A stretch of DNA of 64,000 nt from Thermoproteota archaeon (GCA_024720975.1 JANJXX010000002.1:64001-128000), one strand, 5' to 3'. Shown: positions 5,361 to 23,019, numbered from the stretch's first letter. The notes: generated by a model not told the origin, from the letters alone. Numbers and translations: made by a program.

Positions 5361-7010
5361 CTAAATTTCTTCTTCAGGCTCTTTTTCCCCTACCTCTGTT
5401 TCCTCCTTTTTGAGTTCAAAGGCTTCTTTTGCAGCTATGATATCATCTATTCGGAGCAGCATTATTGCCGCTTCAACAGCGGATTCGATAGCATTCTTTT
5501 TGACAACGTATGGATCAACGTATCCTAGCTGTATCATATCCGCTAATCTACCCTCTATAACATCAACACCGTATGTGTATTTACCTTGTGCATGGAATGT
5601 TCTTAACTTGTTAAGATCCTCAATTGGATCTAGACCCGCTGTCTCAATAAGTATGCTTGGAATCGATTCTATTGCATCGGCGAAAGCTTTAACCACTAGG
5701 CTTTGTCGCCCAGTTAGTTCTTTCTCGGCGATTTTTCTTAACTTTGTTGCTATCGCCATTTCAGGTGCTCCCCCAGCAGGAATTATCCTTGGATCTAACA
5801 TAACGTTTCTAACTCCATTAAGAACATCTTTTAGATTTCTTTCAGCTTCCTCTATAGTTAATTTAGAACCACCACGAATTAGAATAGACACTGCTCGCGG
5901 ATTCTTGCAGCCACGAATAAACAACATTGTTTCATCCCCGACTTTTTTCTCTTCGACGACATTTGCAAAGCCTAGTGCATTTGGACTTAGAAACTCCTCA
6001 TTCTGTATTATTTTTGCTCCTGTGGCTTTTGCAAGTTTTTCTATATCACTCTTCTTGACCCTCCTTACTGCTATTATTCCTTGCTTAGCTAAGTAATGCT
6101 GTACTACATCATCAATGCCTTTTTGGCATATGACAACGTTTGCACCTGTGTTTATTATCTTCTCGGCCATTTCCCTGAGTTTTTCTTTTTCCCAACGCAG
6201 GAGTGTATCAATCGATGTTTTTCCAGCAAATATATGAACATCCGCAAATTCACTCTTTTCAAGCTCTAGTGAGTAAGCAACTAGCAATATCTTTGCATTT
6301 TCGATTCTCCTTGGCATTCTGTGATGAACTATTTCTTTGTCGAGTACGATACCATATATCAACTCCGTATCTAGTAAATTACCACCTTCCTTCTTTTCAA
6401 TCTTTATTTCATCAAGTGGTATTATACGCTTTCCGTTTTCCTCATACATTATTGTTCTTATTGCGTCATAGGCTATATTTGAAAAGTGATCCGCGTATGG
6501 TGCTATGGCTTTGGATGCGATACAGGTTTTAGCGACTTTAAGAACATCTTCTCTTTTTTCCGGGTCGATTTTTATCGCTAGATCATTTAATATCTCTAGA
6601 GACTTCTTAAGAGCAAACTGATATCCGTCGATAATCTTAGTAGGATGAATATCGTTATCAAGTAGCTCCTCGGCTCTGCCCAATAACTCGCCAGCAAGAA
6701 CAACAACTGTAGTAGTGCCGTCTCCGACTTCTATATCTTGCGTCTTCGATAGTTTTGCTAAAAATTTCGCACCAGGATGTACAATATCTATCTCATCTAG
6801 TATCGCTGCACCATCATTACTAATAACAACATCCCCAAACTGGTCGATAAGCATCTTATCTAATCCTCGCGGTCCTAAGCTTGTCTTCATCATTCTTGAA
6901 AGCGTTGTTGCCGCCAGGATGTTGTTTCTGAGTGCCTCCGTGCCGTATGTTCTCCTCGTACCTTCTTTCAATACTAGAACGGGGATTGCTCTCTTCGCCT
7001 CGCTAGCCAT
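5361..7010 (-). CDS. thsA: Thermosome (group II chaperonin) subunit
   Basis: LGPRGLDKM, NDGAAIL, GDGTTT, GGAPE motifs. Confidence 0.96.
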   Translation of the reverse strand: MASEAKRAIPVLVLKEGTRRTYGTEALRNNILAATTLSRMMKTSLGPRGLDKMLIDQFGDVVISNDGAAILDEIDIVHPGAKFLAKLSKTQDIEVGDGTTTVVVLAGELLGRAEELLDNDIHPTKIIDGYQFALKKSLEILNDLAIKIDPEKREDVLKVAKTCIASKAIAPYADHFSNIAYDAIRTIMYEENGKRIIPLDEIKIEKKEGGNLLDTELIYGIVLDKEIVHHRMPRRIENAKILLVAYSLELEKSEFADVHIFAGKTSIDTLLRWEKEKLREMAEKIINTGANVVICQKGIDDVVQHYLAKQGIIAVRRVKKSDIEKLAKATGAKIIQNEEFLSPNALGFANVVEEKKVGDETMLFIRGCKNPRAVSILIRGGSKLTIEEAERNLKDVLNGVRNVMLDPRIIPAGGAPEMAIATKLRKIAEKELTGRQSLVVKAFADAIESIPSILIETAGLDPIEDLNKLRTFHAQGKYTYGVDVIEGRLADMIQLGYVDPYVVKKNAIESAVEAAIMLLRIDDIIAAKEAFELKKEETEVGEKEPEEEI

Positions 7011-7271
7011 ATTATATCACCCATTTCAGCTTTCTTGTAATCCCATTAGAAGTATTTAAGACTGTCTATTTACGACCGTCAGGTTTTTGAATGCTCTTGC
7101 AGAAAAACTTCCAAATCAAATTGATGCATTAAAGAGTGTATTAAACAAATAGCCAACAAATATCGTAGAAACCATAAGAGCTGTCTAGAATTGAATTTCA
7201 ACATTGAATAGTAAGAATATATTTGTAGGTGCTGCTGTTTCTTGCTAGGTGGAGTCTTTATCGAGTAAGAA

Positions 7272-7334
7272 AAACTCAGTGTAACTATGATTCTTCATCG
7301 CTATGCTCTGGCTTGCCGGGTTTTCATCATCGTG
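7272..7334 (-). ncRNA. Box C/D sRNA; D guide matches 23S rRNA helix 69
   Basis: Minus strand: C ATGATGA - AAACCCGGCAAGC - D' CAGA - C' ATGAAGA - ATCATAGTTACA - D CTGA; intergenic. Confidence 0.8.
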
Positions 7335-7501
7335 AAGTTCCAATACTCAAAGTTCATTTTATATTGAGTTTTTATCAGCGGGATTTTTTAGTGAGACAAA
7401 TATAAAATAATTTAAGCGATATAGTTTAATTTAGTGATGTGCACCTCACGCGTCACCTGAAACCTGAATGATTGACACTCGCATTTAAAATGTGATCGAA
7501 T

Positions 7502-7990
7502 ATGGCGGAAGATGAGTTAAAAGAATTAACTCCCGAGGAAATAGAAGCTTTAAGAACAATTTTCGCCAAGGAAGTCTCCGTAGGTCCTACCGAGGAAATC
7601 AAACTAATGGTTCATACTGAGTTGGAACAATTGTTATATAATAATGCCGACATACAAACTACACTACTGGTGGACTCTGCCGGCTTTCCAGTTGATTTTA
7701 TATCCAAACAAGAAACTAAACTTCAAGGAGAAGATTCCCTTATTATAGCTAGTGCTAACTTTTGGGGACTCTTTGCAACGGCAGAACGCGAAAGTTTAGG
7801 TATCAATCTAGGACACGTCAAAATGATAATCACCAGAACACAAAATGGTTTTATCTTTATAACAAAATGCGGGGAAAACTTTGCCCTAGTTGCGATAGTC
7901 AAGCCCCAAGCAAAATTAGGCGTCATCATGAGAGAACTCGAAGCAACGGCAAAAAGAATAGCTGAAAAACTGTCAGGATTCACCATATAA
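7502..7990 (+). CDS. Roadblock/LC7 (MglB-like) protein with acidic N-terminal extension
   Basis: LLVDSAGFPV, AERESLGINLG, AKLGVIMREL roadblock pattern. Confidence 0.85.
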   Translation: MAEDELKELTPEEIEALRTIFAKEVSVGPTEEIKLMVHTELEQLLYNNADIQTTLLVDSAGFPVDFISKQETKLQGEDSLIIASANFWGLFATAERESLGINLGHVKMIITRTQNGFIFITKCGENFALVAIVKPQAKLGVIMRELEATAKRIAEKLSGFTI

Positions 7991-8013
7991 TCTAGCTCAT
8001 GGTGCTCTAAATA

Positions 8014-9015
8014 TTAGATCTTTTCTGCTACAAAACCCAGATACCTCCCGATACTTTTTAGTATTGGCGCTTGCGATAGCATTTCATCAAACTTACATAG
8101 CACCGAATGAATTCTTAGAAACTTTCTCAACTTAAAATTCATGGGAAGCATCGAGAAAATGCTCCTAAATTGTGTTAATCTAAAGCCATGCATACTCAGT
8201 AATTTCTTAGTTTCTAGAATGGTGTAGAAGTGAGTGGGTATCTTCACAAAACCATTTTTTGTAGGAATTCTGATGAAAGCAAATGGCCTATCCGCATATT
8301 TTATAGTCTTAGAAAGCAGGGAAATGCTCCTGACAACCTTTATGATCCAATCAAGAGAGTATCTGTTAATAACTGTTCCTATAAAAACTCCCGCAGGCTT
8401 AATGACACGAGAAATTTCCTTAAATGCATGAGGATAAAATATCGAATGATCCAAGGCTCCAAATATTGCGAGGACGATATCAAACGTCGCACTCTTAAAA
8501 GGTAAGAACTCAGCTGGAACGCAAACAAAATCTACATTATCTAAAGATAAGGCTTTAGAGATTCTCTTTGCCTCAAACAGTGCATTTAAAGAAATATCCG
8601 CTCCCACAGCTTTAAACCTTACTTCATTATATGCAGTCCTGAGGTACTTAATAACGAGCCATAGTTCCCAGCCACTTCCACAACCAATGGCCAGAATTTT
8701 AATGTCCTTTGCCTTTTTATTTCTCATGAGATGATTTATCCCATGTAAAATAAGCCTTGCCTGCTGCTTCCTTAAGTACTTAAGCCAATCACTTCTTTGA
8801 ACACTCCAAGTATTTGGTGGAATCTTTCTGTATGCAATAATAATCTTCTTAAGATGCTTATGAAGAACCCGCGGATAAAGTATTGGAACACCCCCATGTA
8901 CCCTAAAAACCTCGTTCCTAGATCTTATATAACCACTTATGATCTCGTCACCGGATCTTCTTACACATAATTCATCAACCTGAAGCGATAAGATGTCAAT
9001 TAGCCAATCACGCAT
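8014..9015 (-). CDS. Class I SAM methyltransferase fused to an N-terminal Trm112-like domain
   Basis: ILAIGCGSG, GADIS, AEFLPF...FD, EISRVIKPAG; N-terminus WLIDIL...EIISG...VHGGVPIL. Confidence 0.8.
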   Translation of the reverse strand: MRDWLIDILSLQVDELCVRRSGDEIISGYIRSRNEVFRVHGGVPILYPRVLHKHLKKIIIAYRKIPPNTWSVQRSDWLKYLRKQQARLILHGINHLMRNKKAKDIKILAIGCGSGWELWLVIKYLRTAYNEVRFKAVGADISLNALFEAKRISKALSLDNVDFVCVPAEFLPFKSATFDIVLAIFGALDHSIFYPHAFKEISRVIKPAGVFIGTVINRYSLDWIIKVVRSISLLSKTIKYADRPFAFIRIPTKNGFVKIPTHFYTILETKKLLSMHGFRLTQFRSIFSMLPMNFKLRKFLRIHSVLCKFDEMLSQAPILKSIGRYLGFVAEKI

Positions 9016-9416
9016 CTAACGCCCCATTATGACTACTCTTTTCCGTTCAGTTGGATTTAATAAATGTATGGTATCAAGTAGGCTATTTAGATGCTTAATA
9101 TATCACCCTCAAATTGTTGGTAGTAACTACTGCTAAGGTCCCTCTAGCCATATAAGATATTGTTGACGTTTTTCTGACTGGATTACATGCTACATAAAAC
9201 AATACAGATTCATTCTATTTGAGGTTAATTACGCTTTGCTCTCTATCAACTACTATTATAATCGATTATAATCGATAGGCGATGTGACGGAAGGTATCAT
9301 CATAGGCTGAAAATCGGTAACGCAACAACTAATGATAAATTTATAAACTTTGAATATGTGGAATAACAGATATGAAGATCTGCGCTGCTAATATCATTGA
9401 AAGGTATACATCCTAA

Positions 9417-9501
9417 GCCCCGGTGGTGTAGTGGCCAAGCATCCCGGCCTTTCAGCTGAGAAGAAAGCCGGGGATCGCGGGTTCAAATCCCGCCCGGGGC
9501 A
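9417..9501 (+). tRNA. tRNA-Glu(UUC) with 11-nt intron at 37/38
   Basis: Acceptor GCCCCGG/CCGGGGC; anticodon arm CCGGC-CTTTCA[GCTGAGAAGAA]A-GCCGG; T loop TTCAAAT. Confidence 0.92.
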
Positions 9502-9534
9502 ATAAATCATTCATGAAATTGTTTAATAAGAGAA

Positions 9535-10167
9535 CTACAACCCTAGCTTCCTTCTTGTCTCAGATGAAAGGAGCTCTAACTCCCTTTTAAATGTTTCCGG
9601 AAAGATTCGAGCAAGTACCGCCAAACGACAAGCCTCCTGAAAAACGCGCTTGACGCCAAGTCCTTCGATTGCAACCGTGTTAAATATTGGGTGAGGTCCA
9701 CTTAGGCGCATAACCCTCAATAATACTACCTCAGGTAAAGCGTCCGGAAGGTCCCTCTTATTTAAGGCAATTATTATCGGAATTTCATTCCATTCATTTC
9801 CAAGAAACAATCTTAGCTCTTCAATACTGTCTGCGTTCTCCCGAAGAGCTTCGGGGTCGGAGTCTGCGACGAATACTACTGCATCAGCTCCTTTGATAAT
9901 TAGCCTCCGCTGAGTTTTGTGTCTTTTTTGACCCGGAACCGTGTATAGATCGAAGAATATGTTTCCTGAGGTTTTGAGTGGTAAGTAATCAAAGAATATT
10001 GTTCTCCCGGATTGATCAGCAACCATTCGTAGTCTTCCTTTTTTTAGTCCCTTGATTTTATTATAAAGCATTTTTAGCATGGTCGTTTTTCCGCTTAGGG
10101 ATGGTCCATATAGCACTATTTTAAATCTATAGTGCCCGTATTTGTCTTTAAATACCACTTCAAACAC
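9535..10167 (-). CDS. mglA: MglA-type small GTPase
   Basis: GPSLSGKTT, GRTIFFD (in-cis Arg finger), TVPGQ, NKRD. Confidence 0.88.
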   Translation of the reverse strand: MFEVVFKDKYGHYRFKIVLYGPSLSGKTTMLKMLYNKIKGLKKGRLRMVADQSGRTIFFDYLPLKTSGNIFFDLYTVPGQKRHKTQRRLIIKGADAVVFVADSDPEALRENADSIEELRLFLGNEWNEIPIIIALNKRDLPDALPEVVLLRVMRLSGPHPIFNTVAIEGLGVKRVFQEACRLAVLARIFPETFKRELELLSSETRRKLGL

Positions 10168-10285
10168 CTATTAGGGCAGTTCTGTGCAAATACACCATAC
10201 GAAACGACGTACCTCGAACTATCAGAGAACATTTTGAAAAATAAAATAAGATGGAAATATAGTTGTAAATGCTAGATTAAGGACA

Positions 10286-11443
10286 TTATAACGTTCTTAG
10301 AATTGAATCAGGTCCCACCTCCGACCACTCCTTTCGTGTCACAACTATCTTTTTGAAGGCTGGTATGGAGGCTAGAATTGAACCTCCGATGAAGACACCA
10401 TATATGCGCTCCTCTGGAGCTTCTACAGCGACTTTATCTCTAGCTTTCTCGGGTACTATTTCCTTAAGTTCTTTTTCGAGTCTTTGAGCGAAGTTTGGTA
10501 TCATAGTATTACCACCAGAAACTACGATGTTCGAGTACATTGACGGTCTTACGTCTATATCGCATGCGAAGATGCTATCAAGAACCAATTCATCTAGGGG
10601 CTTAGCCTCAAGCCCTATAAGCATTGGACTATACATTATTTCTGGCGATTGAAATCTTTCCTCTACTAATTCTATTACACGCCCATCTGGTAACTCATAT
10701 GTTGCTGCAACAGCCTTTGGAATTTTCTTTGCTTTTTCTAGCTCAGCTTTGTAATCGACAGCCAGATAACATAGCTTCTCTTTGATATCTCTTGCAATTT
10801 CCATTTCGGCGGATGATGTGAAGTATATCCCTCGCTTGGTAAGCAGTTTAGCTAAGTAGCGAGTAACATCACGCCCAGCAAGGTTGAGTCTTCTAACGGC
10901 ATGAGCCAGTAGATATGATTCCTGAACTGGGACTATATGCGTAACACCATCACCGCTGTCTACGACAAGTCCAGTAACCCTACCAGCAGCATAAAGAGAC
11001 AATATAGCTTGTGTAGCGACATAGAGCGCCGGAACACCGAAGGTTTCGAATAGGACCTCAGCCATGCGAATTCTATTTTCTTTTGGACTTAAGGGGGCTT
11101 CTGTTACTAATAGTGCCTGATCTTGAGGATTTGTCCTTAGCTCTTTATAGTATAAGTGATACATCAATTTTTCCCAAGCATCCCAGTCAGTTACAATAGC
11201 ATGTTCCAATGGCCAAACTAGCTGAAGAACGCCTCTCATATGAATCGCGTCACGACCAACATAATATTCCAGTGTCTCTGCTTCTGGCATGACTACGGTG
11301 TACTTAGGATATCCTACCACTGTTGGAAAAACTGTTCTCGGTGTATCATCACCAGCAAATCCAGCTTTTGTAAAACCCGTTCCTAGGTCTGCAACTACTG
11401 CTGGACGTTCGAGCTCCGGAAGCTTGTGTGATGCTGAACTCAT
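10286..11443 (-). CDS. Actin (Asgard/Lokiactin-like)
   Basis: DLGTGFTKAGFAGDD.PR.VFP, LEHAIVTDWD, LLVTEAPL.P, QAILSLYA.GR.TG.VVDSGDGVTH, YELPDG, SGGNTM, IGGSILAS; start placed at MSSASH. Confidence 0.96.
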   Translation of the reverse strand: MSSASHKLPELERPAVVADLGTGFTKAGFAGDDTPRTVFPTVVGYPKYTVVMPEAETLEYYVGRDAIHMRGVLQLVWPLEHAIVTDWDAWEKLMYHLYYKELRTNPQDQALLVTEAPLSPKENRIRMAEVLFETFGVPALYVATQAILSLYAAGRVTGLVVDSGDGVTHIVPVQESYLLAHAVRRLNLAGRDVTRYLAKLLTKRGIYFTSSAEMEIARDIKEKLCYLAVDYKAELEKAKKIPKAVAATYELPDGRVIELVEERFQSPEIMYSPMLIGLEAKPLDELVLDSIFACDIDVRPSMYSNIVVSGGNTMIPNFAQRLEKELKEIVPEKARDKVAVEAPEERIYGVFIGGSILASIPAFKKIVVTRKEWSEVGPDSILRTL

Positions 11444-11755
11444 CAAGATAAACACCCTTGAGCGCGTTTAATTATTCATGCTGTTCAATTGGATATCTTA
11501 ATTATTCCCCTTATAAAACAGATAAGAGGTTAATGTATTAAAACAATACTTACGTTATAACAATTATCAGACTAGAGCACCATAAACTTTTAATCATTAC
11601 AACTTTGTTCTCAATCCAAAGAGTAATTTCTATCGCATGACCAACTTTCTTCCCGGTAAGGGACAAGAAAACTTCATGAGAAAGAAATATTAGTTTATTA
11701 TTGTTGCGGTTAGTAGTACTAATTATTTTAGAATACTTCTGGAGTTTTCAATAGT

Positions 11756-13456
11756 TCATCTCATTTCTACGGCACTCCTGATTTCCTTTGCGAGCTCTCT
11801 AGTACGTGCAACAATGACGATATTTTTACCTAATCTTCTGATCCTTATCAAGTCGTTTGAGAAATCAAAATTGACCACTACTCTCTTATCTAAGATACTA
11901 TTAGCGATTTCTGCGTTAACATTACAAGCTAAAATCAATTTCTGGAGCTTTGATAGGTCATTTATGGCTTCAAGATTGAAAATTATACGAAAATCTTCGA
12001 GCAATTTATATGCTCGCTCCTCAAGATCTCGTATGCTATTGTGAGGAGCCCTTCTTATTTTTTCAATAAATGCCTCGACTTTATCTACAGTTAGATCCTG
12101 ACGAGACTCCATCTCGTTTAACTCCAGCTGAAATGCTCTCCTAGCTTGCTCTATGTAGCTTAGTACGTGCTCCTCTAGATATTTGTATAGCTCATTAATG
12201 ACCAAATCCCCCCTTCCAAATTCACCATGCGCCATCTTTTCTAGTTCTCTTAAGCAATCTAAGTAATTTAAATTTGAATTTCCAAAATGTTTGGTAAAAA
12301 TTTCTTTGAGTTCCTCTGACTCCGAGTTAAGTATGTGTTCTGCGAGAGCAAGTGCTTTAAGCCAAGCTCCTGGCGCCTCAAAAGATCCTATTTTAGTCTC
12401 TTTTAACCAGTTGGCATAACTTTTAAAGAACTCCCAAGGATTGCGATATTGACTTTTGACTAGTGGCTTTAATTCAACTCTATGCGCAAAGACATACGGA
12501 ACGGACCATAAAATGTCTTCTACATCAACTTTACTCATTCCTCTTATCCACGCCCGCGCTCTTGCATACGCAAACAGTGCAATTAGAGCTCTTTCATCGG
12601 GAGGTTCCTGAATCTTACTGCACGGCTCGTTTGCAAACTCACATTCCATACATGGGAGACGCATATATGAGGGCATTAAGTCCAGCTTACCAAGCTTGCA
12701 GATGCGCAAGGAAGTCAAAATCATAGTTCCAAGTAACTTGATATGCTCTGGTATTGTTACTGACGCTACGTCATCCCATATTTTCTCTAATTCTTCAAAT
12801 GATAGGACTTCAGGCATAGTGTCAACAATTGTAAATCTTCTGTAGGTTCTCTCGCTCTCTATCATCCTATCCAGAATGCTTTTGGATTCCCTGAGTCCAG
12901 GAAGTTCTATGTAGCAAGACCCTAAAAATCTCGATTTCAGGGCTCTGTCAATATCCCCCCGGAAGGGATTCATATCAGCAAAACAAATGTAGTCTGGAGT
13001 TTCAAAACGCAGGCCACCATATTCTATGTAACCCTCTTCTAGTAGGCTCAGGAGAGCATCTTGAACACTCTTACTAAAGCGATTTATTTCATTGATGAAC
13101 TTTATTCTAGCTGTAACTACTGGTCTCACTATTATATCCTCCTCGCCTTTTGTCAGTAATTTCACGAGATTTGTACTGACCAGAACCTTTTGAAGAGTTT
13201 TTTCAGGGGCTCCTATAACTATTCCTAGCGATTCTTTATTTTTTGATAATGCTCTACTTATGAGTCTCACTAGCGTAGATTTTCCTGAGCCTGGGAAGCC
13301 TACTAACAACACCTTGTTATTTCGTATAAGAATAGAAGCTATGATGAAACTTTTTATTGATTCGTCACTTGTGATCCACCTTTCAAATAGTTCCTTATAG
13401 AGCGCCTTTATCTTCTGGCGGTAATTTTCAATGACTTCAGAGAGGGTCATTTGCAC
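11756..13456 (-). CDS. MoxR-family AAA+ ATPase with helical C-terminal extension
   Basis: GFPGSGKS Walker A, FINEINR Walker B variant, DMNP, DRALKSRF, FAHRV. Confidence 0.88.
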   Translation of the reverse strand: MQMTLSEVIENYRQKIKALYKELFERWITSDESIKSFIIASILIRNNKVLLVGFPGSGKSTLVRLISRALSKNKESLGIVIGAPEKTLQKVLVSTNLVKLLTKGEEDIIVRPVVTARIKFINEINRFSKSVQDALLSLLEEGYIEYGGLRFETPDYICFADMNPFRGDIDRALKSRFLGSCYIELPGLRESKSILDRMIESERTYRRFTIVDTMPEVLSFEELEKIWDDVASVTIPEHIKLLGTMILTSLRICKLGKLDLMPSYMRLPCMECEFANEPCSKIQEPPDERALIALFAYARARAWIRGMSKVDVEDILWSVPYVFAHRVELKPLVKSQYRNPWEFFKSYANWLKETKIGSFEAPGAWLKALALAEHILNSESEELKEIFTKHFGNSNLNYLDCLRELEKMAHGEFGRGDLVINELYKYLEEHVLSYIEQARRAFQLELNEMESRQDLTVDKVEAFIEKIRRAPHNSIRDLEERAYKLLEDFRIIFNLEAINDLSKLQKLILACNVNAEIANSILDKRVVVNFDFSNDLIRIRRLGKNIVIVARTRELAKEIRSAVEMR

Positions 13457-15083
13457 TCACTGTGCTCTGGGAGATTCTGGTCAGTTCTCTTATGATAATT
13501 TCTATCTCCTCGCATTCTGTAATATTCGGGGGCAAAATTATCACTGGAATGTTAAGAGTTTTTAATACATCCTCAGTTTTTTCCCAGAGCTTCTGAGTTA
13601 TAGCAAAAAATACCAAGATTGATTTCTCTCTAACATTCATTAAACTGTTTATTACCTCAGGAAACTTTATGTCATATATTGCCGTGTCTGTGATTATAGC
13701 TACCAATGCCCTATCATACAAAGAAGATAAGTGATTATCTACTACACTAAGGACATTCCTGATGTTAGTACCTCCTTCAGAGTCTAGCCTTAATATTATC
13801 TCTTCAATAGCGTCATAATTAAATGTAGGTGGCACTCCTTCCCAAGCACCCGAGGAGAATGTTGATAATCCCACAGACATGCCATACTTCTTAGCAATTT
13901 CAACTAGAGCCATACCAACATCTATTGCACGCTCGATAGGATCGTCACTCATCGATCCACTTGTATCTATAACTAACTCCATATGTCTAATTGATCTCTC
14001 CAACGAGTTTAGGTCGCCGCCAATTTCACGCAAATCCTGAAGTGTTGATACATCAGGTATTACGCGACCAAACGTATCTGCTGAGATTTCTATGTTCATC
14101 TTCTCTTCATCATCTCCCATATACCATTCACAAAATCCATACCTTGAGGTTTGTGGTTCTATCTCGATTATTTTTTCTTCTATCAAAGAGAGAATAGCTC
14201 TAATGCGCGCCCTCCTAGCAGCGGCAAGGTATCTCCTCCTATTTAACATCTTCTGGAGAATAGTTTTGTCTTGAGAAAATGCGGGCTCCTTGATTGGCAG
14301 CTTGCCTATTTCTAATTGCTTATCGAGTTTCTTTGCTACCTCTTTCGCGAAGTCATAGTCGATTTCACTTAATTGCTCCATTTCCTGTAAGCTTATAGGA
14401 ATACTATCACTGTTCATTACTTCATTCGCAGAGATTGGTATCAGATACTTTCGTAGTTCCCTCTCGTGGAGAGACCATGGATCTAGAGTATCGATTTCTG
14501 CTAGTAGCTCCCTAAAGAAGATTTTAGCCTTAGCGTAGAGTGGCATGTCTGCTAGGGCGACATTTATTATGCGCATTGTCTTACTCGAAATTTTTCTCCC
14601 TAATACGAATTCATAGAATTCTCTAAGAATGCTTCCTAGGGGCGTGCTAGATGTTGGCTTTGATTTAAGAATTCCTTCTATTGATTCCTTAACAATAGAG
14701 CTAATATGTTTTTGGTTTGATAGTTTGGCAAAAATTACAAAAAGGCACAAGACAGATAACAATGATCCATGTACCTCACTACTATAATTGCCGAGAGTCC
14801 TTCTTGCAGCAGCTAAAATTATCAGTCGATTTAGCTCTGTCGCAGGAAGGATACTGTGATACCCTAAACCCAGGAGAAGAAAGTACTTGTTAAAATCGGG
14901 GAGCTTTGTTCCCTCTGGAGGTTCTGGTAGTAATATTGTACCCCACTGTGTGTACCATGCAGATTTGATTGAGTCGACTTTTATTACAAAACCAGGAAAT
15001 AGGTTATACAATCTGGAGACTTTATCAACGATTTCCTTGAGCTCACTACAATTTATTTCATCTATTGTGTAAAATTCTTTCAT
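13437..15083 (-). CDS. VWA-domain protein (MoxR partner)
   Basis: C-terminal MIDAS DTSGSM, GGTN, ITD; overlaps MoxR start. Confidence 0.88.
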   Translation of the reverse strand: MKEFYTIDEINCSELKEIVDKVSRLYNLFPGFVIKVDSIKSAWYTQWGTILLPEPPEGTKLPDFNKYFLLLGLGYHSILPATELNRLIILAAARRTLGNYSSEVHGSLLSVLCLFVIFAKLSNQKHISSIVKESIEGILKSKPTSSTPLGSILREFYEFVLGRKISSKTMRIINVALADMPLYAKAKIFFRELLAEIDTLDPWSLHERELRKYLIPISANEVMNSDSIPISLQEMEQLSEIDYDFAKEVAKKLDKQLEIGKLPIKEPAFSQDKTILQKMLNRRRYLAAARRARIRAILSLIEEKIIEIEPQTSRYGFCEWYMGDDEEKMNIEISADTFGRVIPDVSTLQDLREIGGDLNSLERSIRHMELVIDTSGSMSDDPIERAIDVGMALVEIAKKYGMSVGLSTFSSGAWEGVPPTFNYDAIEEIILRLDSEGGTNIRNVLSVVDNHLSSLYDRALVAIITDTAIYDIKFPEVINSLMNVREKSILVFFAITQKLWEKTEDVLKTLNIPVIILPPNITECEEIEIIIRELTRISQSTVSANDPL

Positions 15084-15107
15084 AGCTCAGAGAACCATCT
15101 CTGATGA

Positions 15108-16286
15108 TTACTTACATGGAAGTGCAATATTACCAACGCCTATGGTGTTCCCAATACCTAATATGATAACCTTACCTTCACTCGGAACCTCCTCAATTAT
15201 TATCCTTTTAACTACTTCACACGCATTATAAACCGCACTTAGTAATGTCTCACTTAGAGGAGTTAGAGCCTCTACGTAGTTCTCCTTTATCACAACTGCA
15301 TAAAGAGGAATTTTATATTTGGAGGTCCAGGATTCTATTCTGTACTTCTCGGGACCTGGGTCACCTATAGCAGCACCAACCCCTACATCAACTTTTCCAG
15401 TATTCTCCGACTCAAGACGAAGCGCCGCATCGACTGTAATAATTAAATTGACATCTCCTCCGATTTTCTCAAGAATCTTTTGTAAGAAGCGCCCAGGATA
15501 TCCAACTTCACTTCCTGGACCCTTTGCCTTGACAGCTAAAACATATCTGCCCTCAAACTCAGAGGAACTATAGGCTATTTTGAGATCCTCATCGACTTCA
15601 ACTATATCTCCGAAGAAATGGAGCGCTACGAGAGCTCCCACACTATCTCCTATAGGCACACCCTCCACGAAGCCCTTAAGCGCATCAAAATAGCTGAGAC
15701 AGAGCTCTCTAATGAATGGCACTAGAAGTTTCAGTTGCAGAAGATAGTAGATGTTCTTAGTTCGGTATCCAACTTCGTAAATATGAGATGTTATCTTCCA
15801 CAGGTATCTTATTGCAGCTGCTGCTTCTAGAGCGCTTTCTAAATTTTTTTGAACGCGCTCAGGAGCGCTAGGAATTATTTTTTGTGCTATGTTTCTTAAT
15901 CTACTACGCCTGACATCTAATATATGTTCAAGCCTACTTAGAATTCCTGTAGGATCTATCGTTACTGGGTATATTAAGAAGCTATTTATGATTTCATCAA
16001 TCCACTTATTTACTTTAATGAACTCTTTGGATTTTACTATTTCATTAATTGCTGCTTCGTCAATATCTTTTGACGTTATGTTCCACCTATGCACTAGAAT
16101 TAAGCGCATGAATGCTCTCTTTGAAAGCTTTTCGTACAGCGTTATTTCACTGATAAACGACCTTAAGCTCCATATAATGAGCTGGGTTTGTATCTCGTTA
16201 AGCAGAAATATTAACATTAGGAATATCATAAGCGATATCATATAATCTACACTAATTTGTATGAATGACATTTGCAGAAACACCAC
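15108..16286 (-). CDS. DUF1512 family protein
   Basis: N-terminal TM; PIGDSVGALVA, GPGSEVGYPG, TVDAALRLE, GIGNTIGVG. Confidence 0.85.
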   Translation of the reverse strand: MVFLQMSFIQISVDYMISLMIFLMLIFLLNEIQTQLIIWSLRSFISEITLYEKLSKRAFMRLILVHRWNITSKDIDEAAINEIVKSKEFIKVNKWIDEIINSFLIYPVTIDPTGILSRLEHILDVRRSRLRNIAQKIIPSAPERVQKNLESALEAAAAIRYLWKITSHIYEVGYRTKNIYYLLQLKLLVPFIRELCLSYFDALKGFVEGVPIGDSVGALVALHFFGDIVEVDEDLKIAYSSSEFEGRYVLAVKAKGPGSEVGYPGRFLQKILEKIGGDVNLIITVDAALRLESENTGKVDVGVGAAIGDPGPEKYRIESWTSKYKIPLYAVVIKENYVEALTPLSETLLSAVYNACEVVKRIIIEEVPSEGKVIILGIGNTIGVGNIALPCK

Positions 16287-20917: not shown

Positions 20918-21140
20918 TCTAATCTCCTGATGATAGCGATAGTGATCAGGACATTATATGTTGATATTTGCCCTAATAAAAACCTCAATAATAAACAAAA
21001 TTATAATGAACTCCATCCTTTAAAAATAGATGGAGAATGCACATTTGTCGTTTGGCTAGAGATTGCGTATTATCCAGGTAACACTCTCGAGTATGCTAAG
21101 GTTTTAATGCGTTCCCATTTCCAAATGAAATGTGAATGAA

Positions 21141-22145
21141 ATGCCCGAGGAGAAAATAAAACTACTTAGGTGCGAGAGCTTAGAAGAAACTATTCGATAC
21201 CTAAAATCATCTGATATACGTGATGATTCCAAGCAGTACATTCTCATGTTCATTGATGAGCTTAAAATAAAGGGTTTCAGTCAGTTTAGGATAATGGCTT
21301 ATGCTCTTACATTAATAGAGTTCGCAAAGATTGTGAACAAGAGCTTTAATGAGCTTACAGCTGCAGATTTCAGATACTATGTTAATGTTCTGCTAAACGA
21401 AAAACACAACAAACACAGTACTATTAGGGAAAAAATGATGCGCATAAGAGTTTTCATGCGGTGGCTTTTAGATCTTCCGCCAAGAACGACTCCTGACCCA
21501 ATGAAATGGTTTTTCACTATAAGCCCTAAAGCTACTAAAGGGAATAAAATTCTAGAAATTCTAGAGAAAGTAATCGACGACTACGAATATAATGCGCTAT
21601 TGAATGCGGCTAGGAGGTTGAGAGATAAAGCCCTTTTACAATTCTTATATGAGACGGGATCGAGAATTCTAGAGGCATTAGAGGTTCGTATCAAGGACGT
21701 TAACGTTGAAGAGAACTACGCAATAGTTGGCGGAGGAAAACGATTAGTTCCGATCGTAAACTCTGAATGGGTTAAAAAGTGGCTTGAAGAACATCCTCAA
21801 AGGCATTTACCAGAAGCTTACCTGTTCTGTAGTTTAAGGAACCCTAAGAAACCCCTCAGTTATCCTGCTGTAAGAAGGCTTCTAAAGCGGTTAGCTAAAA
21901 TTGCTCATCTCAAAAAGAGAGTTACCTGCCACATGTTCAGGCATACACGCGCAACACTTCTGGCGAAATTCGGCGTTTCACCTTATGCAATGAACCAAGT
22001 GATGGGTTGGAGCGCCTCAACGAAAATGTGGCAGGTTTATTTACACATAACACAAAAAGATGCCCTGCGAGAAATTCTCGAAAAATTCAGTAGACGCCAT
22101 GGCAATTCCGCAGAAAATACGACAAGAACCGACAAATCCACTTAG
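21141..22145 (+). CDS. Tyrosine recombinase/integrase
   Basis: ETGSRILE (R), HMFRH, MGW, VY (Tyr); N-terminal SAM-like helices; 59 bp upstream of tRNA-Leu. Confidence 0.9.
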   Translation: MPEEKIKLLRCESLEETIRYLKSSDIRDDSKQYILMFIDELKIKGFSQFRIMAYALTLIEFAKIVNKSFNELTAADFRYYVNVLLNEKHNKHSTIREKMMRIRVFMRWLLDLPPRTTPDPMKWFFTISPKATKGNKILEILEKVIDDYEYNALLNAARRLRDKALLQFLYETGSRILEALEVRIKDVNVEENYAIVGGGKRLVPIVNSEWVKKWLEEHPQRHLPEAYLFCSLRNPKKPLSYPAVRRLLKRLAKIAHLKKRVTCHMFRHTRATLLAKFGVSPYAMNQVMGWSASTKMWQVYLHITQKDALREILEKFSRRHGNSAENTTRTDKST

Positions 22146-22203: not shown

Positions 22204-22286
22204 GCGGGGGTTCCGGAGTGGTCAAACGGGCGGGACTTAGGATCCCGTGGTGAATGCCTACGCGGGTTCGAATCCCGCCCCCCGCA
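22204..22286 (+). tRNA. tRNA-Leu(UAG)
   Basis: GCGGGGG/CCCCCGC acceptor; CGGGA-CTTAGGA-TCCCG; long variable arm. Confidence 0.95.
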
Positions 22287-22315
22287 TTATATTATATTAA
22301 CATTGAGCTAAGTTA

Positions 22316-22388
22316 GGGCCGGTTGCCTAGAGGTTATGGCGTCCCGCTCACAACGGGAAGGTCGGCGGTTCAAATCCGCCCCGGCCCA
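22316..22388 (+). tRNA. tRNA-Val(CAC)
   Basis: GGGCCGG/CCGGCCC acceptor; TCCCG-CTCACAA-CGGGA. Confidence 0.93.
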
Positions 22389-22527: not shown

Positions 22528-23019
22528 ATGATCGTGAGAAGAATGGTTGACACTGCCGAGCTAGATAAAAGGCTTCAAGAAATTTATGATGAATTAGATA
22601 AAGCTGTTAGAGAAATCGCTGAGAAGATAGGAAATGTCAAGCTTGTGGTAGCCTCTGTTTGTGGAAATCCTGTGGCCAGTTATTCCGATTCACCTTTAAG
22701 TGTAGATGAACTCAACGCAATCTCAAGCTTGTTGGATGGAACTCTTGAGGGACTCCAGACTCTTTTTACGCAAGTTTTAAGACTAAATTTAAGCTTTGAA
22801 AATGATTTCTTATTTCTTGAGAGTCCAGATTCAATACTAGTCCTCCTCAACATAAGTGGTGCATCACTATTAGTCCACGCAAGCAAACCCGTCCTACTCG
22901 GAACCGTGCGTGCAGTTATCAAAAGCTATCTGCCAAAGATAAAAAGACTTCTTGATGAACTTCAGAATCTCCAAAACAGACTTCTTGCCGTTGAAGCCCT
23001 CAGAAAGAAAGAAGTTTGA
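22528..23019 (+). CDS. Roadblock/LC7-like protein with flanking amphipathic helices
   Basis: VVASVCGNPVAS, AISSLL, PVLLGTVRAVIK. Confidence 0.7.
   Translation: MIVRRMVDTAELDKRLQEIYDELDKAVREIAEKIGNVKLVVASVCGNPVASYSDSPLSVDELNAISSLLDGTLEGLQTLFTQVLRLNLSFENDFLFLESPDSILVLLNISGASLLVHASKPVLLGTVRAVIKSYLPKIKRLLDELQNLQNRLLAVEALRKKEV

Follow-up and report, generated by a model that had tools for sequence, protein, structure and literature searches.

A genus-limited pairing of single origin between an actin gene and an MglA-family GTPase gene in Njordarchaeales

The DNA analysed here is a window of 64,000 nucleotides (nt), the whole stretch under study, which corresponds to C19:64001-128000 of an archaeal genome of 1.36 Mb and 81% completeness (G000). 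Close homologues of the proteins encoded in the window carry the labels Njordarchaeota or Njordarchaeales, and the host is a hot-spring, genome-reduced Asgard archaeon of the order Njordarchaeales. An actin gene is followed here by the gene of an MglA-family GTPase (mglA), and two genes encoding roadblock-fold proteins (robl1 and robl2) are located in the same window. An earlier reading of the sequence, referred to below as the original prediction, had announced an actin, an MglA-type GTPase and two roadblock genes, and all four were recovered at or near their predicted positions (Table 1). It had moreover proposed a candidate module in which a co-transcribed GTPase serves as the switch of actin. 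This proposal is not upheld, because the adjacency is not conserved, is partly convergent and leaves the roadblock gene outside the transcription unit. We propose, with a probability of roughly three in four, that a rearrangement in the ancestor of a single Njordarchaeales genus brought two separate functional units together. The GTPase, the actin and the roadblock proteins are new members of known families, arranged in a lineage-specific way.

An MglA-type gene was found in 396 of the 400 Asgard genomes searched. Since actin and MglA are both nearly universal in Asgard archaea, their phyletic co-occurrence is uninformative. The coordinates of MglA and actin matches were compared across 14 genomes of the order Njordarchaeales. 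Among the Asgard genomes surveyed, the two genes are adjacent in the genus of the window (g1) only, and there in five of five genomes, in tandem in G000, G293 and G296 and convergently, with the 3' ends facing each other, in G294 and G295. They lie on different contigs in G284, G285, G286, G287, G291 and G292; the mglA contig of G291 is 402 kb long. Ten metagenome contigs encode an MglA of at least 80% identity, seven of them in tandem with actin and two convergently, the last being too short for a decision. More distant metagenome homologues of MglA (39-52% identity) have no actin gene nearby. The reverse scan started from actin and covered 80 loci with up to 10 kb on either side, one genome being taken per species, from Njord-, Hod-, Heimdall-, Thor-, Odin-, Baldr-, Jord-, Frey-, Sigyn-, Hermod-, Atabey- and Loki-type genomes. 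By tblastn and profile hidden Markov model (HMM), no MglA was found near actin at 78 of these loci, and the two exceptions belong to the genus of the window. Genes for MoxR-type ATPases and von Willebrand factor A (VWA) proteins, which neighbour actin in the window, were not found near actin outside the genus in the same scan. The survey thus confines the synteny of actin and MglA to a single genus with mixed orientation, and same-strand adjacency of actin and GTPase does not recur across lineages.

In a maximum-likelihood tree of MglA, the actin-adjacent proteins form one clade (support 100/98) inside a clade of Njordarchaeales (100/98). The latter is nested in an Asgard clade in which roadblock-flanked loci are widely distributed. 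Because the actin-adjacent MglAs form one clade, the adjacency arose once, and as a single evolutionary event in one genus it carries no statistical weight beyond n = 1. The pair is a derived arrangement limited to one genus, and its gene order looks like a local accident rather than the mark of a conserved module for actin control. A second MglA copy in G296 (L104, contig CAZWPQ010000017.1; 75% identity) adjoins an IS110 transposase gene and genes for very large Big_7-repeat proteins and has no actin beside it; possible explanations are a recent duplication, a transfer or a mixed bin. A second group of Njordarchaeales MglA paralogues sits among genes for topoisomerase VI, RNA polymerase and translation.

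Gene order around the pair is fluid within the genus. A cluster of seven genes (thermosome, robl1, methyltransferase, actin, mglA, MoxR, VWA) was compared between the window (5361-15083) and the loci L001, L002, L081, L082, L101-L106 and L145-L154, and at least three orders or orientations were found. Loci of the G293 type read thermosome (+), robl1 (+), methyltransferase (-), actin (+), mglA (+), MoxR (-), VWA (-). The window, when flipped, reads VWA (+), MoxR (+), actin (+), mglA (+), methyltransferase (+), robl1 (-), thermosome (+). Only mglA has been inverted in G294 and G295. MoxR and VWA adjoin actin or mglA in loci of the same genus in either orientation, and the methyltransferase gene also belongs to the cluster of these relatives. 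A search for inverted repeats that might explain the local inversions yielded, at the breakpoints of the window, only short imperfect pairs at chance level. The wider order VWA, DUF1512, FEN1, EndA, Tmk, Trm1 is the same in the window and in L101. Because this wider gene order is kept too, the persistence of the pair in the genus is expected by descent and has little weight.

A competing explanation of the pair itself is that MglA was recruited in this genus as a nucleotide switch on lokiactin filaments, with robl1 and robl2 as the off-switch. The arrangement offers several points against a mere accident. At no locus of the genus has the pair been separated, although three or more local inversions have occurred around it; one of the arrangements shows actin and mglA inverted together as a unit. 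Nine of the ten metagenome contigs share the adjacency, and a roadblock gene lies within 1.5-3.6 kb in three of the five genomes. There is also a true precedent: MglB is the GTPase-activating protein (GAP) of MglA, and Myxococcus MglA-GTP binds the actin homologue MreB (PMC4508894). Both precedents, which the original prediction had invoked, are real, and by analogy the second makes a functional link between MglA and actin biologically plausible. Local inversions, however, by nature keep neighbours together, and general gene-order conservation in the genus deprives the retention of much of its meaning. The adjacency has a single evolutionary origin, it is convergent in two of the five species, and it is missing from the other Njordarchaeales and from 78 other Asgard actin loci. 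In a sister family mglA is equally stable behind the gene of PCNA, and the RNA contigs described below are separate and differ about 9-fold in depth. A prediction of the actin-MglA complex scored 0.00 against a mark of 0.32 and, having been run without controls, speaks neither for nor against binding. We regard recruitment of MglA to actin filaments as quite improbable. The same very low credence applies to any MglA-actin link, for which the single-origin adjacency is the only support.

RNA data are consistent with two units. A sediment metatranscriptome contains contigs of a relative which is 90-95% identical. One contig of 1169 nt covers actin only (approximately the whole open reading frame, ORF) at a depth of 56.6, another of 427 nt covers part of mglA only at a depth of 6.2, and none of the assembled RNA contigs of this relative bridges the spacer between the two genes. 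In a hot-spring metatranscriptome (X1), two short contigs of at least 99% identity match actin only, at a depth of about 3. Raw reads of two further hot-spring metatranscriptomes (X3 and X4), of which about 3 in 100 per run were sampled, gave none on 9350-11650. Against the reading of two units it must be said that contigs cannot show transcript ends and that the relative which supplied them may be convergent. The contigs are thus a weak hint of separate actin and mglA units with different expression levels.

The spacer itself may point in the same direction. An oligo-T tract lies about 40-55 nt past the actin stop and is kept in the alignment of tandem loci of relatives; a Shine-Dalgarno sequence (AGGTG) precedes the mglA start within the spacer. 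Oligo-T tracts are termination signals in archaea. From a reading of the spacer by eye, the tract may be the terminator of actin, an element of the mglA promoter, or both. In the convergent species mglA needs its own promoter because the two genes face each other, and for the same reason there is no co-transcription in two of the five genomes of the genus and in two metagenome contigs. Actin and mglA may be transcribed separately in G000 as well. On the other side of mglA, the opposite-strand tRNA gene bounds its transcription unit. The first roadblock gene is located about 1.5 kb past the GTPase gene, at the distance originally given, but it is on the opposite strand and behind the tRNA and the methyltransferase gene. 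Hence robl1 is outside the mglA transcription unit.

Asgard MglA-like GTPases and roadblock proteins have been described (PMC10933270; bioRxiv 10.1101/2024.02.28.582541); one of these reports names an MglA1 group (bioRxiv 10.1101/2024.02.28.582541), the other speaks of 'bacterial-like MglA' (PMC10933270). We compared the closest MglA orthologues outside Njordarchaeales (E about 1e-45 or better; 17 loci from about 15 families). Roadblock genes are located directly beside mglA in 16 of the 17 loci, usually one on each side and on the same strand. A typical cluster consists of a roadblock gene of 155-164 amino acids (aa) upstream, mglA, and a roadblock gene of 121-134 aa downstream, sometimes with a third of about 99 aa. 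At one locus (L114), independent gene calls and precomputed Pfam assignments give the order Robl-Robl-MglA-Robl. The Asgard clusters are a 1:2 or 1:3 MglA:roadblock system found across many families. The third protein of about 99 aa is LAMTOR5-like by Pfam; the clusters are those at L091-L100 and L114-L120, and the one at L114 adjoins SMC-ScpA-ScpB. In a distant MglA clade of Loki- and Odin-type genomes no flanking roadblock gene was found within 1.5 kb. An exact-sequence look-up of orthologue proteins from L093 and L095 returned no record.

In the sister families of Njordarchaeales, mglA has acquired other neighbours. At four loci of family f4 (L083, L086, L087, L088) it lies directly downstream of the PCNA gene on the same strand, adjoining genes of the ribosomal proteins L11, L7Ae and S28e, and in family f2 (G284, L089) it lies 24 nt downstream of the gene of ribosomal protein L2. 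The stable PCNA-mglA pairing shows that gene pairs persist without an obvious functional link. No roadblock gene was present within the fetched mglA locus at eight Njordarchaeales loci outside the genus. The roadblock-mglA operon is the older state, because roadblock-flanked loci are spread across the enclosing Asgard MglA clade, and it is dissolved in Njordarchaeales. Genes mglA and mglB are usually coupled, sometimes in a 1:2 ratio (PMC4316618), and roadblock loss together with a reduced eukaryote-like gene set has been inferred for Njordarchaeaceae (bioRxiv 10.1101/2025.02.13.637844). The history read from the MglA tree fits both of these reports.

The assignment of the GTPase to MglA is firm. 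Its ORF (9535-10167, minus strand) contains the predicted GRTIFFD and TVPGQ signatures. Among solved structures it matches Thermus MglA best (E 5.1e-43), then Myxococcus MglA (2.4e-34); of Arf-like proteins, Arl8 comes first with 6.2e-9, so that the protein is nearer to MglA than to Arf, Ras or Rag structures. Further motifs are GPSLSGKT, a P-loop of the form GxxxxGK[ST]; GRT, with the intrinsic arginine and the threonine of switch I; and NKRD. In MglA the G3 motif is TxxGQ, with threonine where aspartate is usual (PMC3000849). GRTIFFD aligns with DRTLFFD of Myxococcus MglA (R53/T54) and with ERTLFFD of Thermus MglA. An alignment of 44 GTPase sequences shows no variation at G23, K24, T25, R52, T53, G76 and N133-D136 and very little at T73 and Q77. 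Translation starts at GTG 10158, which is preceded by AGGTG. Since the homologues start (with ATG) at the codon aligned with this GTG, the GTPase has 207 aa and the spacer 127 nt. The original order, actin and then GTPase on the same strand, is correct; its spacer of 118 bp is not, as the GTPase starts nine bases further downstream. From NCBIfam no MglA-specific or roadblock model fired, and the GTPase gave a sub-threshold small_GTP match only. Besides MglA, an HMM scan of G000 ranked two GTPase-like ORFs highest. One (C27:21477-22313) encodes an Arf/Ras-like protein of 278 aa, about 120 aa of which are an N-terminal extension; the other (C25:91036-92124) encodes a protein of 362 aa with a weak GTPase match and no Pfam match.

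The actin is equally clear, Pfam and structure matches agreeing with the original identification. The ORF (10286-11455, minus strand) matches Pfam Actin with E 6.8e-113 and 377.8 bits over residues 16-386. A Shine-Dalgarno sequence (GGGTG) 8 nt upstream of ATG 11443 backs the start chosen originally. The Asgard 'HC1 actin' (9wc4) is matched with E 2e-128 and eukaryotic actins with about 1e-127. Identity is 51-56% to 27 actins of other Asgard classes and 88-90% between members of the genus, and amounts to about 55% against Asgard and eukaryotic actins alike; the fold is full-length and the nucleotide-binding motifs are present. Njordarchaeia actins have been placed in the lokiactin clade (bioRxiv 10.1101/2025.02.13.637844).

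Of the two roadblock proteins, robl1 is recognised by its sequence. It scores 27.4 bits with Pfam Robl_LC7 (cut-off 23) and matches the structure of Roadblock3 of MK-D1 (9jue, E 2.1e-9). Compared by hhalign with the two families of roadblock proteins encoded on either side of mglA in other Asgard archaea, it reaches probabilities of 94.8% and 89.1%, and it is the top genome-wide match in G000 for the HMMs of these two families (2.5e-9 and 5.6e-8). As second protein-coding gene from mglA, on the opposite strand, robl1 is within the distance of four genes that is used to define mglA-mglB coupling (PMC4316618). The same holds for G293 and G296 (3.6 kb), and it does not for G294, G295 and the sister family. 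The gene at 22528 is of a different kind. No Pfam, NCBIfam or PDB sequence match was found for robl2, and hhalign gave 22%. Its AlphaFold2 model has a predicted local distance difference test (pLDDT) value of 79 and a predicted template modelling (pTM) score of 0.72, from an underlying alignment of 3 sequences only. Foldseek puts Myxococcus MglB (6hjm) on top with E 1.4e-6 and a TM score of 0.77, and no fewer than 105 PDB structures match with E 0.001 or better, those of MglB of Myxococcus and Thermus, LAMTOR and Asgard roadblock proteins leading the list. As judged from the model, robl2 has a roadblock fold, an alpha-beta-alpha sandwich. A second roadblock gene is therefore correct as to predicted fold and does not hold as to sequence-level membership. 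robl2 is a near-orphan, with 2 homologue clusters among 5.8 billion proteins and a 30%-identical copy in G295, and it ends in a C-terminal helix of 39 residues. It is encoded just past genes of tRNA-Leu and tRNA-Val (22204-22388) and of a tyrosine recombinase (21132-22145); the latter may mark an integration site or be an Xer-type housekeeping gene.

Whether these proteins act on MglA bears on how the second unit would work. A role of robl1 as former operon partner is weakened by low identity to the mglA-flanking roadblocks (25-28%), by a best match that is a roadblock elsewhere in the genome in three of five test genomes, and by its separation from mglA: in G294 and G295 it is on a different contig, and in the sister family the two genes are not linked. 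The location on a different contig also agrees with an alternative in which the MglA of Njordarchaeales is an orphan GTPase that uses its own arginine finger and has no roadblock GAP, robl1 and robl2 serving other GTPases or scaffolds. Other small GTPase-like genes do exist in G000, the fetched mglA loci outside the genus contain no roadblock gene, roadblock loss is reported on the Njordarchaeaceae branch (bioRxiv 10.1101/2025.02.13.637844), and functional orphan MglAs are known in SofG and Bdellovibrio MglA (PMC4316618). We nevertheless think such an orphan state unlikely, given that robl1 is the best genome-wide match to both mglA-flanking Asgard families, that three genomes of the genus encode it no more than four genes away from mglA, and that the modelled robl2 resembles MglB most.

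Under the preferred explanation of two units joined by rearrangement, the first unit would be a housekeeping lokiactin with its own promoter region, which probably ends at the oligo-T tract and is expressed alone. The second would be the MglA-family GTPase with a complete catalytic set: P-loop, arginine finger and threonine, TVPGQ with the catalytic glutamine, and NKRD. Hydrolysis would be carried out by its own arginine finger and glutamine and be sped up by an MglB-like roadblock dimer. robl1 is the candidate GAP partner and robl2 a possible second subunit, like the two roadblocks of other Asgard operons; GAP action of either on this MglA is a prediction from homology and predicted fold. The ancestral operon would have dissolved, and mglA would have landed after PCNA, after ribosomal protein L2 or, in this genus, after actin.

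Table 1. Positions of the genes and elements discussed, in window coordinates
Feature	Coordinates	Strand	Basis
Lokiactin-type actin, 385 aa	10286-11443	-	Pfam Actin, PDB matches
Spacer between actin and mglA, 127 nt	10159-10285	-	direct sequence reading
MglA-family GTPase (group-1 type), 207 aa	9535-10158	-	PDB, motifs, homologue starts
tRNA gene, 85 nt	9417-9501	+	ARAGORN; Rfam tRNA 54.1 bits
S-adenosylmethionine-dependent methyltransferase	8014-9015	-	Pfam Methyltransf_25, _11, _31, E about 1e-12
robl1, Roadblock/LC7 protein, 162 aa	7502-7990	+	Pfam Robl_LC7
robl2, divergent roadblock-fold protein, 163 aa	22528-23019	+	predicted structure
MoxR-type AAA+ ATPase	11756-13456	-	Pfam AAA_5, AAA_lid_2, bpMoxR
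VWA protein	13437-15083	-	Pfam VWA_2
Thermosome (group II chaperonin, CCT homologue)	5361-7010	-	

The minus strand of the window carries, in this order, VWA, MoxR, actin, GTPase and methyltransferase, so that MoxR and VWA are upstream of actin; the tRNA gene is inserted on the plus strand between GTPase and methyltransferase. The genes of MoxR, VWA and a DUF1512 protein are closely packed as a trio on the minus strand (11756-16286), the MoxR and VWA ORFs overlapping by 20 nt. This trio is kept across the genus despite fast divergence, VWA being 40% identical between genomes of the genus as compared to 89% for actin. The thermosome gene is about 3.3 kb from actin and remains a member of the cluster in G293 and G296 at least, its proximity being limited to the genus. 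Eukaryotic actin is folded by CCT. For the tRNA gene, ARAGORN left the anticodon undefined and, once introns were permitted, called 'tRNA-Stop(tta)'. Manual reading gives tRNA-Glu(UUC) interrupted by an 11-nt intron at the canonical position 37/38, and the suppressor-tRNA call is probably a misparse. We considered and rejected a 'cytoskeleton island', as the remaining neighbours are housekeeping genes (thermosome, MoxR, VWA, DUF1512, FEN1, tRNA-splicing endonuclease, thymidylate kinase, Trm1, integrase, PAC2).

A conserved GTPase switch wired to an Asgard actin would bear on the origin of eukaryotic cytoskeletal regulation, and the locus gives no such evidence. What the survey establishes is that MglA is near-universal in Asgard archaea, that it is typically encoded in an operon together with two roadblock genes (1:2 MglA:MglB-type), and that this operon is dissolved in the streamlined Njordarchaeales. 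One might still imagine that in this genus the ancestral switch was taken apart, that its GTPase gene came to stand beside lokiactin, and that MglA now controls the assembly or anchoring of actin filaments in a GTP-dependent manner, with robl1 and robl2 together as GAP. If true, archaea would possess an equivalent of MglA-MreB that is functionally analogous to the control of eukaryotic actin by Rho-family GTPases. We hold it to be most improbable, and found no paper in the literature linking lokiactin to MglA. The priority suggested by these results is the biochemistry of MglA with the roadblock proteins first and MglA-actin binding second.

Among known systems, close relatives are the operons of the Asgard MglA1 group. 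Their GTPases share a supported clade with that of the window (43-51% identity), but there the same-strand roadblock genes of about 155-164 and 121-134 aa flank mglA, whereas in Njordarchaeales this operon is dissolved. With Myxococcus and Thermus MglA (PDB 3t12, 3t1q, 6h5b, 6izw) the GTPase has the catalytic set of Arg-Thr, TVPGQ and NKRD in common, and it aligns with Thermus MglA without a gap between G1 and G2. As in the MglA/MglB polarity switch of these bacteria, roadblock-fold proteins are encoded nearby, the robl2 model being closest to MglB; unlike there, the window has no mglB-mglA operon, the nearest roadblock gene is on the opposite strand behind the tRNA and methyltransferase genes, and GAP activity is predicted. 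The annotated part of the window showed no genes for RomR/RomX, Frz or motility. The focal adhesions of Myxococcus resemble the present case in that an MglA-type GTPase and a protein of the actin superfamily occur in one organism. There MglA-MreB is a demonstrated protein interaction (PMC4508894), while here gene adjacency is what is observed. Compared with the lokiactin that is regulated by profilin and gelsolin, finally, the actin of the window is full-length, scores similarly to eukaryotic actins and is as a gene no different; what is unusual is its mglA neighbour, and this in the present genus only.

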